DNA of 38,273 nucleotides from a virus. Lineage: Duplodnaviria; Heunggongvirae; Uroviricota; Caudoviricetes. Shown here in pieces: positions 32,139 through 37,943 of the stretch. The first letter of the stretch is position 1. Each line of letters opens with the position of its first letter. The stretch is taken from positions 1 through 38,273 of IMG/VR virus record IMGVR_UViG_2639762987_000013. One strand, written 5' to 3'. The notes under the pieces are model-generated. The model saw nothing but the letters and a program-made list of their open reading frames with translations. It was not told where the DNA came from and did not search any database. The position numbers and the translations under genes were made by a program.

Positions 32139-33982
32139 TGAAAGTAACTGCAAACGGTAAGACATTTACCTTTCCTGATGGTACGAGCACCGAAGATATT
32201 GGCACCGCCATTGATGAGTATTTTGCTGGTCAGGCTGTTCAGCAACAAACAGTTAATCAGGCCAATAATGCACCAACACGGGAAGAACCATCATTGATGC
32301 AACAAGCTGGCGATTGGCTCACTGGTGGTCAAAGTGCAGGGCAAATTGCGGAACAGGCTGGTCGTGGTCTGGTAAACATACCATTTGACGTATTGCAGGG
32401 CGGCGCAAGTCTGATTAATGCAATCAGCCAGGGGCTTGGTGGCCCCAAGGTTTTGGACGATGTCTATCGTCCAGTCGATCGACCAACAGACCCTTATGCG
32501 CAAGCTGGAGAAACAATTGGCGGGTATTTAGTTCCAGGAGTTGGAACGGCAGGAAGCATGGCTATTGGATCACTGGCAGAGGCCGCAAATCAGAAAGGCG
32601 ATTTCGCACAAAATGCAGCTAAAAATGCCGGAGTTAACCTTGCCGCTCAGGGGGTTCTTTCCGCAGCAGCAAAGGGAATAGGGCGTGGAATAACGGCTAT
32701 AAAAGGTGATATTGCGCCAGAAGTGGCGAAGAAAATTGCCACATCAGAATCGATGGGCGTGACACCAATGACATCTGATGTTATCCCGCCGAAAAATGCT
32801 TTCACTCGCGGCCTAACTCAGGATGCCGAGGGGGCTTTGCTCGGGACAGGCTCAAAGCGAGCGGAGCAATATGCAACGCGTAGTAAGCTGGTAAGTAATT
32901 ATTTTGACCGTTTTGGTGAGTACAACCCTGATGATGTGGTGAAATCTCTTACCACCACGTTAAGGGGGCGGAAGGATGCCGCTGGCGCTGTTATCAATGA
33001 CGTCACCAATAAAATGGGTAATGCCGCAGTTGATACCACAAATACCATGAATGCTCTGAATACAGCGATCGCAAGACAGGAACGGCTTGGGACGTCTGCC
33101 AATCAAAGCCTGCTTACATCCTTGCGTAACCTACGTGAAGAATTAGCAAACCCTGCAACTGATTTGGATGTTACGTTTGATCTCTTGCGTCAGCACAGAA
33201 CAGCATTTAGATCTAATGTTCAGGGAGATGCTATGGTCTTCCCAAACCAGGCAAAAGCAGCTACCAATATGGTAGAGAATGCAATGTCAAAAGATCTTCG
33301 TAACGCAGTTGCAAAAAACCTCGGTGCATCAGACGCAGCAAAATACCTTAAAGCAAATTCCGATTATGCAAACGTTTATAATAAGGTGCTTAATAAAAAC
33401 ATTGCTAACAAGCTCAACAAGGCAAGCAGTGAAGCCAGTCCTGAACTTATAAATACCGTTGTATTAAGCAGAAAACCATCTGACGTGAAACGAATCTGGA
33501 GCGCATTGGATAATAAAGGGAAAGATGCTATGCGTGCAGCTTATGTCAGCAAAATAGCGGAAAAGGCCGGTGACTCTCCAGCCAAGTTCATCACTGAAGT
33601 TAATAAGCTGAAATCTCAGTCAGGCGGTGAAATTTACAACACTATTTTTTCTGGAAAGCACATGAAAGAGCTTGATTCTCTTCATGAAGTTCTACAGCAA
33701 ACAGCAAGGTCAGACACCGCAAATGTAGTAACTCAGACGGGGCAATCGCAAGCCAACAGGATAAGGACGATTGGCGCAACTGCGACTCTTGGCGTATCAA
33801 TGGGGCTTGAGGCTGGTTTCGGTGCAATGATGCGCTTGTATGAGTCAAAAGCAGCAAGGAATGCTCTCTTACGTTTGGCAAACACCAAAGCAGGAACACC
33901 AGCCTATGAAAGAGCGCTAAATAATGCTGCAAATGCGATACGCCCTATACTTTCAAGCCAAATTACAGCAGAACAGCAATAA
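32135..33982 (+). CDS. Ejection protein, gp16-type, 615 aa
   Basis: Size and position in P22-like order; ATGA overlap with gp20. Confidence 0.7.
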
Positions 33983-33995
33983 AAATAAGATATAA

Positions 33996-34481
33996 CTATC
34001 TGATATTACTGCTACTGTTGCATGTTACCGTGTTTCCAAATCCTGAATTGCAGTTTGTATATGTGTCAACGCGTGTTGGGTAAGGTTGAGTTATAACAGG
34101 CTGGCGCGCTTTTTGCTCGATCGCTTGCATTGTGTTTACAGCCTGATAATTCAATAAAGCCTGCTGGAATGCTTGGCTTTGTGCTATTTGTTGTGCTTGT
34201 TCTTGGCTTTGTAATTGAACATAAAGATTCTGAAGTTCAAGTCTTGCCTGTGTGTCACTTATCTTGCCTTCATCGACACCTTGCCCGAGCATCTTCGCAG
34301 CAAGGACATACAGCTTAGGTGTTGGTGCTGATGCCATGCGAGAGTCGTTCTTCAAGCTGGCATCAAGGCAATTAGCCATATCGCTAAGCTTTGGATAGCG
34401 TTGCTCGCAACTTGCCTGATAGTCGCTTACTTTTGCGCACCCAGCCAGCAGAAGCGGGATAATTAACAGTGATTTTTTCAT
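33996..34481 (-). CDS. Predicted lipoprotein (signal peptide MKKSLLIIPLLLAGC, lipobox LAGC; Gln-rich helical region; Cys-containing C-terminus), 161 aa
   Basis: ATG 34481 with AAGGAG RBS; lipobox read from sequence; antisense to the late operon, in the sieA/immI slot. Confidence 0.6.
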   Translation of the reverse strand: MKKSLLIIPLLLAGCAKVSDYQASCEQRYPKLSDMANCLDASLKNDSRMASAPTPKLYVLAAKMLGQGVDEGKISDTQARLELQNLYVQLQSQEQAQQIAQSQAFQQALLNYQAVNTMQAIEQKARQPVITQPYPTRVDTYTNCNSGFGNTVTCNSSSNIR

Positions 34482-34515
34482 ATAATTAACTCTCCTTAGT
34501 TTTGCGCAGGATACC

Positions 34516-34881
34516 ATGAAAAAAGTTAACATTGGAAACGTACCAAAGATGCTCGTTCCGCTCTTTGAGAGCGGTACAATTGTGTTTTGTAGAGACTTTC
34601 CAGAATGGCAACGCCTGCATCAAAAACTTGGCGTTGACGTGCATGACTCGGACGCCAACGGAGCGTCTCATACAATGAGTAGCGAGAATGGTGTTTTGCA
34701 TGTGATAGGCGTGTTCAATGGCAAACTATCTACTATTGCCCATGAGTGCGCTCACATGGCATTCGATATCTGCTCAAGGGTAGGTGTTGATGTTGAACCA
34801 GGAAGAGCCAACGAGACTTACTGCTACTTAATGAGCAGGCTTGTTGAGTTCTGCGAGCGACATATCAAAAAGCCGGAGTGA
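34516..34881 (+). CDS. Small HExxH-motif protein (IAHECAHMAFDI), possible minimal zinc metallopeptidase, 121 aa
   Basis: HEXXH motif read from translation; stop lies in a bidirectional terminator hairpin (34871-34888). Confidence 0.5.
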   Translation: MKKVNIGNVPKMLVPLFESGTIVFCRDFPEWQRLHQKLGVDVHDSDANGASHTMSSENGVLHVIGVFNGKLSTIAHECAHMAFDICSRVGVDVEPGRANETYCYLMSRLVEFCERHIKKPE

Positions 34882-34888
34882 CCCGGCT
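34871..34888. terminator. Bidirectional intrinsic terminator between convergent genes (AGCCGG-loop-CCGGCT with T-tracts on both strands)
   Basis: Read from sequence. Confidence 0.55.
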
Positions 34889-34894
34889 TGATTA

Positions 34895-35074
34895 TTACTT
34901 TTTGCTGTCTGGAGTTCGCTTATCCAATACCCAGCCATGACCTGGCTTTGTTGTTGGTGGAAGCCTTTCGTTGTCCTTGACGGTTGCAAAATTGTCTTTC
35001 TTACCGCCGCGTGGGCCAACTTCTTGGTATATTCCGCCGTTTTTTCCTGTGTTTTCACCTGGTTTTTTCGCCAT
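34895..35074 (-). CDS. YjzC-like small protein, 59 aa (MAKKPGENTGKNGGIYQEVGPRGG...LPPTTKPGHGW...)
   Basis: Pattern KPGE...G.Y.E.G..G.......V..GE.LPPTT...W resembles YjzC-like family (from memory); GAGG RBS before ATG 35074; candidate sigma70 promoter (TTGACT/17 bp/AATATT) at 35111-35139 on minus strand. Confidence 0.45.
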   Translation of the reverse strand: MAKKPGENTGKNGGIYQEVGPRGGKKDNFATVKDNERLPPTTKPGHGWVLDKRTPDSKK

Positions 35075-35147
35075 GATATACCTCAACATACACCCGTTAT
35101 TGGGCGATTAAATATTGATCTCATTTTATAAGTAGTCAATATGGCCC

Positions 35148-35172
35148 AGGTAAATGCAAAAATTAACCCACC
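35148..35172. terminator. Hairpin terminator downstream of mnt (AACCCACC-TTCA-GGTGGGTT + T-tract)
   Basis: Read from sequence. Confidence 0.5.
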
Positions 35173-35173
35173 T

Positions 35174-35425
35174 TCAGGTGGGTTTTTTGTACAAATCCTT
35201 CAGCGTATCAAACACCATCTTCTTAACAAGCTCTGACTGCTCATCAGCGATGCGTTCCGCATCGTCTCGATAGCCTGAAATTTTGGATGGCTTTGATACA
35301 GCATCAGTCACTATCTGAACTAATTCTGAATTAAGAGAGCGGCCATTGGATTTGGCTCGCTGTTTTAGTTTTTCCTTTAATTCGTAAGGTAGCCGCAGAT
35401 TAAATTGCGGGTCATCTCTTCCCAT
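35174..35425 (-). CDS. mnt: Mnt repressor (Arc/MetJ ribbon-helix-helix), 83 aa
   Basis: MGRDDPQFNLRLPYELKEKLK.RA..NGRS.NSEL.QIV.DA.SKPS...GYR.DAERIADEQSELVKKMVFDTLKDLYKK matches recalled P22 Mnt. Confidence 0.85.
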   Translation of the reverse strand: MGRDDPQFNLRLPYELKEKLKQRAKSNGRSLNSELVQIVTDAVSKPSKISGYRDDAERIADEQSELVKKMVFDTLKDLYKKPT

Positions 35426-35489
35426 TCTTGATGCCTCGCTTTTGTGAGTGGATCGGCATCTTATTATCTGCTGATTGCATCCTCAATAA

Positions 35490-35502
35490 GACCACGGTGG
35501 TC
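35490..35502. promoter_or_regulatory. O_mnt-like operator (GACCACGGTGGTC) within Pant-equivalent region upstream of tailspike
   Basis: Near-palindrome with the same CACGGTG core as the P22 mnt operator (recalled as TCCACGGTGGA). Confidence 0.5.
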
Positions 35503-35572
35503 GTATTTTTTTGATTAATAATGCATCACTGCGGCAATGCTGCGGCGATTCCTTGTATCTGGAGCAAATTAA

Positions 35573-37564
35573 ATGACAGACATTACAGCCAATGTTGTAG
35601 TGAGCATGCCTTCGCAACTCTTCACTATGGCGCGTTCTTTTAAAGCCGTAGCTAATGGCAAAATTTATATCGGTAAAATTGACACTGACCCGGTAAATCC
35701 TGATAACCAGATTCAGGTCTATGTTGAGAACGAAGATGGTTCTCACGTTCCTGTTGCACAGCCAATCGTCATCAATGCCGCTGGGTATCCAGTATATAAC
35801 GGACAGATTGCCAAATTCGTAACTGTGCAAGGCCATTCTATGGCTGTTTATGATGCATGTGGTGCGCAGCAGTTCTATTTTCCAAATGTGCTGAAGTATG
35901 ACCCGGATCAGTTAAGGCAGGAGTTAGCAAGTTCAGGTGATGATCTTGGAGATGCATTAATAGCAGTAAAACAACCATTCACCTTGTCAATAAGAAGGAC
36001 GCAGCATCAAAAAAATGCCGAGCACATTAGTGTTAGTGATTTTGGTGCAAAAGGAGACGGCATAACAGATGATACTGTAGCAATTCAAAATGCTATTAAT
36101 GCAGTACCAGAAGGGGCTATACTTGGATTTTATGGTGGTGAATTTGTTTTTGATAAGGTTGAATTGCTTAAGCCAATAACATTGGTTGGTGATGCAACGT
36201 TAATTCACAACGGATTTAGAATAAAATCTAGCAGAATACGATCACTTTTATCTGGTGTTCAGAAATGCAAGGATTACTCCGAGTCTTCAAGAGCATTTTA
36301 TTGCTATGCAAATGAAGACCAAAGAGATTATGACGATATTCAGATTTTGTTTAATAGATTTGAAGGTTTCTTTTACTCTACGGCATTTGTTGCAAAAAAC
36401 TATTATTTGGAGAATGACCCTAATTCAAGAACTGTCAAAAATACAAAAGTAATAGGATGTACATCAGTTGCTCCTGATTCTGTAAATGCCGGTCATTTTC
36501 AACATATAGGCGTTACAAATGCTGAAACATCACATAACTCAACTTATGGCGGACAAAATGCAACATCATACAACTTCATTAACCAGAATGGATTTGTAAG
36601 GATTATAGGAAATTATGACCATAACAATAGCTATGGTTCATGTGAGCTTGAGAACTCAATGGTGAGTAACTCAGTCATATCATGTAATACGTTTTCGTCA
36701 TATTTATGGGTGGATGATACAAGTAATGTTACTATTTCTGGAAATACAGTTTCATCAAGGATCAAAGTAACATCGCAAACTGACGATGTTCATAATATAA
36801 CCATATCAGCAAATACCACAAAACGGATTACTATAGAGCAATTTGGAGAATCTCCGACAGGTCTGGTATATGGTGCATTAATTTCCTGTAACACTATTAC
36901 TGGCGACAGTGATGGAAGTTCAGACATTTTATGTACGTCACTTGTTACAGGTGAAATTTCATCAAATTATTGTCATGGATCAGAAAAAAATATATCAATT
37001 GTCCGCCTGGATTCTTCTGATATAACTGTTAGAAACAATAAAGGAAACAAAGGATTACTTACAATAAGTAACGATGGTGGGAGGATAATTGAATATGGCA
37101 ATGATTCTATGGTTCTGTCTGGAAGCATAGATAGCAGACATATACATAATTTATTACAACCAGACACATCGTATTTAGATCTACCGGGGAAATATCTGCA
37201 CGGAACTAAATATACTGGCAGTATCCCCCCCGGTTCCACAGGAACTGTATCACTTCAAATACCATCAGGGGCAAGCCTTGTTTTCAGGGGTGTTTCTATA
37301 TGGGTTCTAATTAGAGATGTTAGCAATAACAATATATCGTCATTCAGAATTGATGGTTCATATAGAGTTGTTGGTGGAAGTGTTGGTCTTAGTTTTGCTG
37401 ATGCTTATTCGAAACTCGGGGTGGATGCAAACTCTATAACAGTGTCAAACAATAACAGCACTTCTGACAATATCAGCATAGCAATTAAAAACACAGATTC
37501 ATCAAAAACCCTTCAGGTTACTGTTATGCCGGAGGTTTCAAGCAGGTTAGGTATTGAGGAATAG
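35573..37564 (+). CDS. Tailspike: P22-type N-terminal head-binding domain fused to a distinct right-handed beta-helix (pectate-lyase-like) receptor-binding domain, 663 aa
   Basis: First ~110 aa ([11 protein letters not shown]...[33 protein letters not shown]......INAAG..VYNGQ......VQGHSMA.YDA.G.Q.....NVLKYDPDQ) match P22 gp9; remainder starts with beta-helix motif [22 protein letters not shown] and is Asn/Ser/Thr-rich. Confidence 0.9.
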
Positions 37565-37640: not shown

Positions 37641-37943
37641 ATGATGAATATAGAAGTTGATATAACACCAATTCTTCACGCACTTTGCGCTGTTGTCGCA
37701 CAAGTTCTGGTTGGTCTTTTTACCGGAAACTGGGCTTACGGTGCGATAGCCGGTTGTACGTTCTTCATTGCGCGTGAACACACCCAGGCAGAATATCGCT
37801 GGATTGAAATGTTCGGGCATGGCAAGCGTATGAATATGCCGTGGTGGGGTGGTTTTGATCCACGCGTGTGGGATGTAGGAAGCCTTATGGATTTTTCTTT
37901 CCCAATTATCGGATGCTTATTGGTATGGATTCTTGCATCGTAG
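37641..37943 (+). CDS. Small two-TM membrane protein, 100 aa, terminator-flanked
   Basis: Two hydrophobic segments; Trp-rich loop; terminators on both sides (37593-37620 and 38032-38055). Confidence 0.5.
   Translation: MMNIEVDITPILHALCAVVAQVLVGLFTGNWAYGAIAGCTFFIAREHTQAEYRWIEMFGHGKRMNMPWWGGFDPRVWDVGSLMDFSFPIIGCLLVWILAS

Follow-up and report, generated by a model that had tools for sequence, protein, structure and literature searches.

The gene at positions 34516 to 34881 of the analysed stretch of DNA (38,273 nucleotides, hereafter the window) is hkcC, a name first given in phage HK620, and its product of 121 amino acids belongs to a family within the zincin superfamily that is, by the tests run, neither of the M78 nor of the SprT-like type. 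HkcC is an uncharacterised variant inside a known enzyme superfamily, with an unexpected conserved partner: in at least eight lineages hkcC forms a convergent pair with orf59a, a gene of the YjzC family, across a common terminator hairpin, an arrangement that is new. Based on sequence and predicted structure, we tentatively propose, at a probability of roughly 45%, that HkcC is an accessory cytoplasmic gluzincin peptidase that would act during lytic growth and would be functionally tied to the lysogen-expressed YjzC protein.

The window represents a mosaic E. coli P22-like (Lederbergvirus) prophage whose kin include HZ41, CUS-3, IME10 and HK620. The same protein, 98–99% identical overall and 99% identical in HK620 and P22, is encoded by HK620 (HkcC), SE1 (gp64), ST160, UAB_Phi20 and P22. 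Genome papers list the product as 'unknown function' (PMC2629481, PMC4837284), and the gene is unannotated in the curated P22 record BK000583. On the other strand, this record has the sieA promoter annotated at the first 31 nucleotides of the hkcC ORF and the terminator of the mnt operon at its last codons; in this part of P22 (BK000583, 13861–14234), the ORF takes up exactly the space from the mapped sieA promoter to the mnt terminator. One stretch of 366 nucleotides is both a protein gene and the carrier of two regulatory signals for leftward genes.

HkcC matches PHROG 1365 over its full length (E=1.7e-39, residues 1–121 on profile positions 3–120 of 127), and a profile search of 1.84 billion representatives yielded 546 clusters at 50% identity (E≤0.001), nearly all of them stand-alone proteins of 110–140 amino acids. 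Moreover, comparisons between genera indicate purifying selection on hkcC, with pN values of 0.25–0.45 and saturated pS values of 0.68–0.97. Hence, hkcC is a real gene under purifying selection, and a chance ORF or an antisense artefact of the region between the sieA promoter and the mnt terminator was ruled out by the deep protein family together with the selection signal. Of 5,426 complete E. coli genomes, 132 contain the block comprising hkcC and orf59a, and PGAP annotates both genes there as hypothetical. At ≥95% identity, 52 GenBank phage records match hkcC and 52 match orf59a, and the two lists overlap heavily. The locus search by closer alignment comprised only near-identical P22-like copies from viral contigs.

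In the window, hkcC (34516..34881, plus strand; ORF list and phrog_1365) starts with ATG and is preceded, at a gap of 4 nucleotides, by the Shine–Dalgarno sequence AGGA (34508..34511, plus strand), which was read from the sequence and is kept in P22 and HK620. The block conserved in P22, HK620 and the window starts only about 25 nucleotides 5′ of the ATG, and this short stretch holds the Shine–Dalgarno sequence of the leftward cargo gene, be it sieA, hkcB or the lipoprotein gene. By homology, the first 31 nucleotides of hkcC (34516..34546, minus strand) contain the equivalent of the P22 promoter PsieA, which BK000583 annotates at the homologous position; the window, P22 and HK620 do not differ in this sequence, and in the window this promoter would drive the upstream cargo gene. 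The latter encodes a predicted lipoprotein of 161 amino acids (33996..34481, minus strand; phrog_6067, E=2.9e-109; lipobox LLAGC) that has no Pfam match. The slot, whose content varies among loci, holds sieA in P22 and hkcB in HK620, and the lipoprotein gene, as variable cargo, is outside the zincin cassette proper. Since this gene occupies the slot of the P22 superinfection-exclusion gene sieA and is apparently under control of the conserved promoter inside hkcC, it represents a candidate exclusion or surface-modifying moron.

The terminator scan revealed a bidirectional hairpin at the other end of hkcC (34867..34889, both strands), common to hkcC and orf59a and annotated as mnt terminator in P22 and as bidirectional tORF59A in HK620. 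The stem contains the codons for K-K-P-E at the C-terminus of HkcC as well as the stop codon, and the 'KKP' C-terminus conserved in this clade is therefore probably kept because its codons form the stem of the terminator. Convergent to hkcC lies orf59a, also termed hkcD (59 amino acids; 34895..35074, minus strand; phrog_3202 and Pfam YjzC). A sigma-70-like promoter candidate for this gene, TTGACT-17-AATATT (35111..35139, minus strand), is based on a consensus match only; it is the sole promoter-like site within positions 33800–35700, and P22 and HK620 have kept its sequence. The gene for the ribbon-helix-helix repressor Mnt (35174..35425, minus strand) lies upstream of orf59a in the same orientation and was identified by the Pfam models Arc (2.8e-22) and Repressor_Mnt (2.2e-18); a hairpin (35165–35184) follows its stop codon. 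The initial annotation had placed hkcC next to the Mnt repressor gene; the latter is indeed real and lies 293 nucleotides from hkcC, but orf59a is located in between. It had also stated that arc and ant are absent, in agreement with our finding that there is no such ORF between mnt and the tailspike gene (35573..37564; ORF list). In this phage, Mnt is consequently left without an antirepressor gene to repress. The mnt gene is kept without arc or ant, at a spacing of 147 nucleotides (35426–35572) from the tailspike gene, and an ORF for a hydrophobic protein of 100 amino acids (37641–37943, plus strand) directly follows 3′ of the latter. We found no second copy of hkcC in the window.

The motif IAHECAHMAFDI (HExxH) comprises residues 74–85 of HkcC. 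In an alignment of 107 diverse family members, which are 21–45% identical to HkcC of the window, no columns other than H76, E77, H80 and E100 are invariant (107 of 107), and the first three of these residues are likewise invariant in 18 of 18 close relatives. These results bear out the initial annotation, which had recognised an HExxH motif in a stand-alone protein of 121 amino acids and had named the conservation of this motif as a check. G49 (106/107) and Y104 (104/107) are nearly invariant, C103 (88/107) and N99 (79/107) are further conserved positions, and the hkcC clade additionally keeps C25, C78 and C86. In 98 of the 107 members, H80 and E100 are separated by 18 or 19 residues. We estimate the chance of a single HExxH in a His-rich protein of 121 amino acids at about 3%, which is not rare; a chance occurrence is excluded here because H76, E77, H80 and E100 are the sole invariant columns among 107 relatives.

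The HExxH-plus-Glu pattern constitutes a predicted active site of the gluzincin type, and the putative active-site codons for H76, E77, H80, E100 and Y104, deduced from the family alignment and the model, are located at 34741..34827 (plus strand). The AlphaFold2 model of HkcC (pLDDT 89, pTM 0.83) shows the order beta-beta-alpha-beta-beta-alpha-alpha, in which the first of the two final helices (residues 71–88) carries HExxH and the second (residues 100–116) begins at E100. This predicted order of elements fits a minimal zincin core and, together with the conserved third-ligand candidate E100, supports the zincin-type site that had been proposed initially. HkcC is devoid of a transmembrane segment and of a signal peptide and has a pI of 6.4. 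The zincin reading is thus well supported by the sequence and moderately by the predicted structure.

Scans of HkcC against the curated models of Pfam, NCBIfam and PADLOC yielded only spurious lantibiotic matches or nothing. Among the predicted viral structures in BFVD, 26 small phage proteins share the fold (E≤0.001); most of them are unnamed, and the few named ones are labelled SprT-like or metalloprotease. The weak sequence matches of the family are zincins only, namely SprT-like proteins, myroilysin, astacins and M78. In the Foldseek search of the PDB the best protease match was SPRTN with a probability of 0.51, and no solved protease matched the model significantly.

With respect to its ligand arrangement, HkcC resembles the thermolysin-type gluzincins (MEROPS M4; 1kei, 1npc), in which the third ligand likewise is the Glu of an N-E motif, located on the helix after that of HExxH and 20 positions past the second His. 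A phmmer comparison of thermolysin with HkcC places HExxH and N-E in register, although this match is non-significant (E 0.09–0.7). Y104 of HkcC stands at what we take to be the position of thermolysin Asp170. In contrast to HkcC, the thermolysin-type enzymes are secreted two-domain proteins of about 316 amino acids. Like HkcC, the minigluzincins (proabylysin, 4JIU, and projannalysin) are stand-alone soluble zincin cores, of about 105–110 residues, with a sheet, the active-site helix and a 'glutamate helix' (cited in PMC4559962).

The initial annotation had offered the ImmA/IrrE-type peptidases and the SprT-like domains as possible assignments, and neither withstood the searches. The M78 proteins (ImmA/IrrE, COG2856) are, like HkcC, small cytoplasmic HExxH-plus-Glu zincins on mobile elements. 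However, PF06114 gave no match for HkcC at E≤10 and none for any of the 107 relatives at E≤0.1. An hhalign comparison of the family profile with a purpose-built M78 profile reached a probability of 70% over 26 columns only, comprising a strand and the HExxH helix. The third-ligand Glu follows after about 32 residues in M78 (H82...E115) versus 19 residues in HkcC (H80...E100). Moreover, M78 proteins have 167–292 amino acids and are co-transcribed with an XRE repressor; in the case of hkcC there is no XRE repressor in the operon, and its neighbours, the lipoprotein gene and orf59a, as well as the mnt gene are all on the opposite strand. Membership in M78 was therefore rejected on the grounds of the absent PF06114 match, the short alignment and the lack of an operonic XRE repressor.

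The SprT-like or WLM zincins (SPRTN 6mdx, Wss1; PF10263) share with HkcC a very small zincin core that is widespread in phages. The third ligand of SPRTN is a His (H111/H115/H130), in contrast to the invariant Glu of HkcC; in the alignment of 107 members there is no conserved His after H80. PF10263 does not match HkcC, and the matches in 14 of the 107 relatives are all under the gathering score (best E=1e-4; 15.7 bits versus a cut-off of 25.6 for the one inspected in detail). The hhalign comparison with SPRTN, whose query sequence was checked against 6mdw, aligned 17 columns of the HExxH helix at a probability of 19%. Consequently, we rejected the SprT-like assignment as well, since HkcC itself is not matched, the third His is missing and the alignment is confined to the HExxH helix. 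SprT-like and WLM zincins have themselves been described as minigluzincin-like (PMC4559962).

The partner Orf59a matches phrog_3202 with E=7e-31, and Pfam YjzC (PF14168) with E=0.0013 and 19.4 bits, which is below the cut-off of 25. Its homologues with 69–79% identity are named 'YjzC family protein' in NCBI or UniRef, and one of them carries PF14168; homologues with 64–80% identity occur across Alpha- and Gammaproteobacteria. By prediction, Orf59a is a small and basic beta protein, with three strands in the model (pLDDT 77). With pN values of 0.04–0.31 at saturated pS, orf59a is better conserved than hkcC. The two genes occur together in 69 of 80 P22-like viral contigs; in the other 11 loci a gene for a predicted membrane protein of 74 amino acids is located directly downstream of hkcC instead. 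In these loci, different Mnt/Arc-like and Ant-like genes then follow. Cassettes with homologues that are only 43–63% identical were found in Klebsiella, Rosenbergiella, Xenorhabdus, Proteus, a Pasteurellaceae genome and one further lineage, and several of these diverged cassettes reside in prophages of the siphovirus type whose flanks are unrelated. The spacing of the two genes is 14–39 nucleotides throughout, around a GCCGG...CCGGC hairpin. The other zincin clades are not accompanied by orf59a.

Genes of the YjzC family also occur in other surroundings. In P22, orf59a is part of the mnt transcription unit, which the lysogen expresses; in a Clostridium phage and in prophages of Yersinia, the YjzC gene is a lone reverse-strand moron inside late operons, and the YjzC genes of Firmicutes have no adjacent zincin. 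On the chromosomes of Sphingopyxis and Maricaulis, the YjzC gene is divergent from an operon encoding an XRE repressor and Peptidase_M78. In a metagenome sample of 77 loci with a recognisable YjzC ORF, an HkcC-type zincin is located convergently downstream at 31 loci, and an M78 gene lies nearby at 11 loci. The latter show at least four architectures, one of them with a fused XRE-M78 gene directly upstream. Neither type of zincin was present at the other 35 loci, some of which have only a divergent repressor gene of the XRE or Arc/Mnt type. Taken together, zincin genes of both the HkcC type and the M78 type are neighbours of YjzC genes, which links YjzC to zincins of two unrelated families. 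The adjacency of YjzC and XRE/M78 is seen in Alphaproteobacteria and in environmental contigs, in divergent orientation or directly downstream. Our literature search retrieved no paper on YjzC and no mention of YjzC beside XRE/M78 modules.

In P22-like phages, hkcC resides in the variable 'ant moron' from gene 16 to gene 9 and is co-directional with the late operon. In ST64T, L and epsilon34, the stretch from the lysis genes to dec/terminase contains a paralogue, orf129 (129 amino acids, 38–40% identical), immediately 5′ of dec, the decoration gene. SE1, ST160, UAB_Phi20 and Phi75 have two matching places per genome and may carry two copies. Distant members occupy the slot between lysis and terminase genes at 10 of the 11 loci examined, next to three unrelated families of the large terminase. 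Further members are present in early-gene clusters of N4-like phages, between the helicase and DNA polymerase genes of a KP34-like phage, and after ParB-like, AAA-ATPase and DnaT genes. One distant member overlaps the stop codon of a Tad2-like gene (PF11195, anti-Thoeris family), in a cluster with ParB_N, AAA-ATPase and thioredoxin genes. Among plasmids, only eight records match, most of them prophage-like, and there is no ArdC-like conjugative context; the idea of an anti-restriction function on plasmids was dropped for this reason.

At all loci examined, the family gene is co-oriented with the surrounding lytic operon. The promoter scan of the window did not reveal a plus-strand promoter near hkcC and, given the late-operon direction of the gene, hkcC is probably transcribed by read-through of lytic transcripts, as judged from the sequence. 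In addition, hkcC is an accessory gene outside the Mnt/Arc/Ant switch. The initial annotation had implied that the gene stands in place of arc and ant. This premise is wrong: P22 and UAB_Phi20 carry hkcC in addition to mnt, arc and ant (PMC4837284). Relatives are also found in N4-like and KP34-like phages, which are lytic and lack an immunity region. A role as replacement antirepressor is disfavoured by the occurrence in strictly lytic phages and by the presence of hkcC alongside arc and ant in P22.

According to the mechanism that we propose, one Zn2+ ion would be held by H76 and H80 of the active-site helix and by E100 at the start of the next helix, E77 would activate the catalytic water, and Y104, one turn past E100, might help to polarise the site. 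The beta-strand formed by residues 59–66, just before the HExxH helix, would bind the substrate peptide in an extended form. hkcC, having no detectable promoter of its own, would be expressed by read-through during lytic growth, and orf59a, having its own promoter candidate and by analogy to the mnt unit of P22, would be expressed in the lysogen. The lytic-phase protease and the lysogen-phase YjzC protein would then, most plausibly, act in one pathway, in which HkcC may remove or process YjzC or its effect, or YjzC may gate HkcC. For HkcC, we infer metal binding, catalysis, the timing of expression and the physical or functional link to YjzC.

The main rival to this link is that HkcC acts alone on a host protein. 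As a stand-alone, host-directed protease serving anti-defence or take-over, it would have no need of Orf59a, and the adjacency would reflect two morons that share a terminator and move together, which we regard as rather unlikely. The wider family occurs without YjzC in the N4-like early clusters, the replication modules and the lysis-terminase slot; one member directly follows the Tad2-like anti-defence gene, and the P22-like loci without orf59a likewise argue for independence. However, neither a PADLOC match nor a known anti-defence homologue was found, and the adjacency to orf59a outlasts saturated synonymous divergence in both podovirus- and siphovirus-type prophages, which exceeds usual hitch-hiking. 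Moreover, placement in the late direction in temperate phages would be odd for a counter-defence function that is needed early. Our literature search did not yield any paper on hkcC function or on small phage zincins as counter-defence.

Alternatively, HkcC could be a DNA-dependent protease akin to SprT, Wss1 and SPRTN that frees phage DNA of bound or cross-linked proteins ahead of replication or packaging. The weak SprT-like matches, SPRTN as the best protease in the structural search and the SprT-like labels in BFVD point in this direction, as does the frequent location beside terminase, helicase/polymerase, DnaT and ParB-like genes. Some longer members end in charged coiled-coil-like segments and Lys-rich basic C-terminal tails, e.g. 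KPKKASKPKAKPIKEE...RYKRG, suggestive of nucleic-acid binding or of a targeting signal; these members contain charged tails only and no second known domain. HkcC, with 121 amino acids and its slightly acidic pI, has neither such a basic tail nor a zinc ribbon or other DNA-binding module. Together with the invariant Glu in place of the third His, the sub-threshold Pfam matches and the alignment restricted to the HExxH helix, this makes an SprT-like DNA-dependent role quite improbable.

A further alternative holds that the fold is zincin-derived and binds metal without protease activity, as a structural zinc protein, binder or regulator. C103, one helical turn past E100, could serve as a fourth ligand, and this reading is consistent with the Cys residues kept in the hkcC clade and with the absence of a significant match to a solved protease. 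However, the catalytic base E77, needless for a purely structural site, is invariant throughout the family, which makes a non-catalytic role in metal binding very improbable. Moreover, a Cys switch conferring latency is also known among genuine zincin proteases, for instance in Wss1 (PMC4559962).

The least probable of the readings considered is the one favoured by the initial annotation, an ImmA/IrrE-type antirepressor protease cleaving Mnt or the C2/CI repressor: despite the M78-like site type, the proximity of mnt, the hhalign probability and the presence of YjzC genes beside true XRE/M78 pairs elsewhere, the tests for an ImmA-like protein fail, the distribution and orientation of hkcC do not fit, most cassette lineages outside the P22 group have no nearby repressor, P22 possesses Ant for this task and hkcC as well, and no promoter that would allow expression in the lysogen was found. 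A looser form of the antirepressor-circuit idea is favoured by the fact that, in other bacteria, YjzC-family genes adjoin true XRE/M78 modules. XRE/COG2856 pairs are known protease-repressor switches, as exemplified by IrrE/DdrO and ImmA/ImmR (PMC6868357, PMC2701414, PMC10538038). A zincin and YjzC might thus form a recurrent two-part switch, with HkcC and YjzC in prophages of Gammaproteobacteria and YjzC with XRE/M78 elsewhere, though in our estimate this is distinctly unlikely. If it were true, zincin-controlled circuits of stress or induction would have YjzC as their conserved substrate, inhibitor or output, and HkcC would represent an unrecognised protease family that switches a prophage function off or on at lytic growth.

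Although few phages have been studied as thoroughly as P22 and HK620, hkcC is missing from the curated P22 annotation. The family of stand-alone mini-zincins founded by hkcC is large, with 546 clusters in many phage types, and a 'hypothetical' protein becomes a predicted enzyme with four obvious residues to mutate. The pairing of YjzC with HkcC as well as with XRE/M78 provides two uncharacterised families with a shared, testable context, which suggests Orf59a as the first candidate substrate, followed by Mnt and C2. Should HkcC indeed serve in counter-defence or in a switch from lysogeny to lysis, it would constitute a new class of phage accessory function; otherwise, the results provide a useful annotation.
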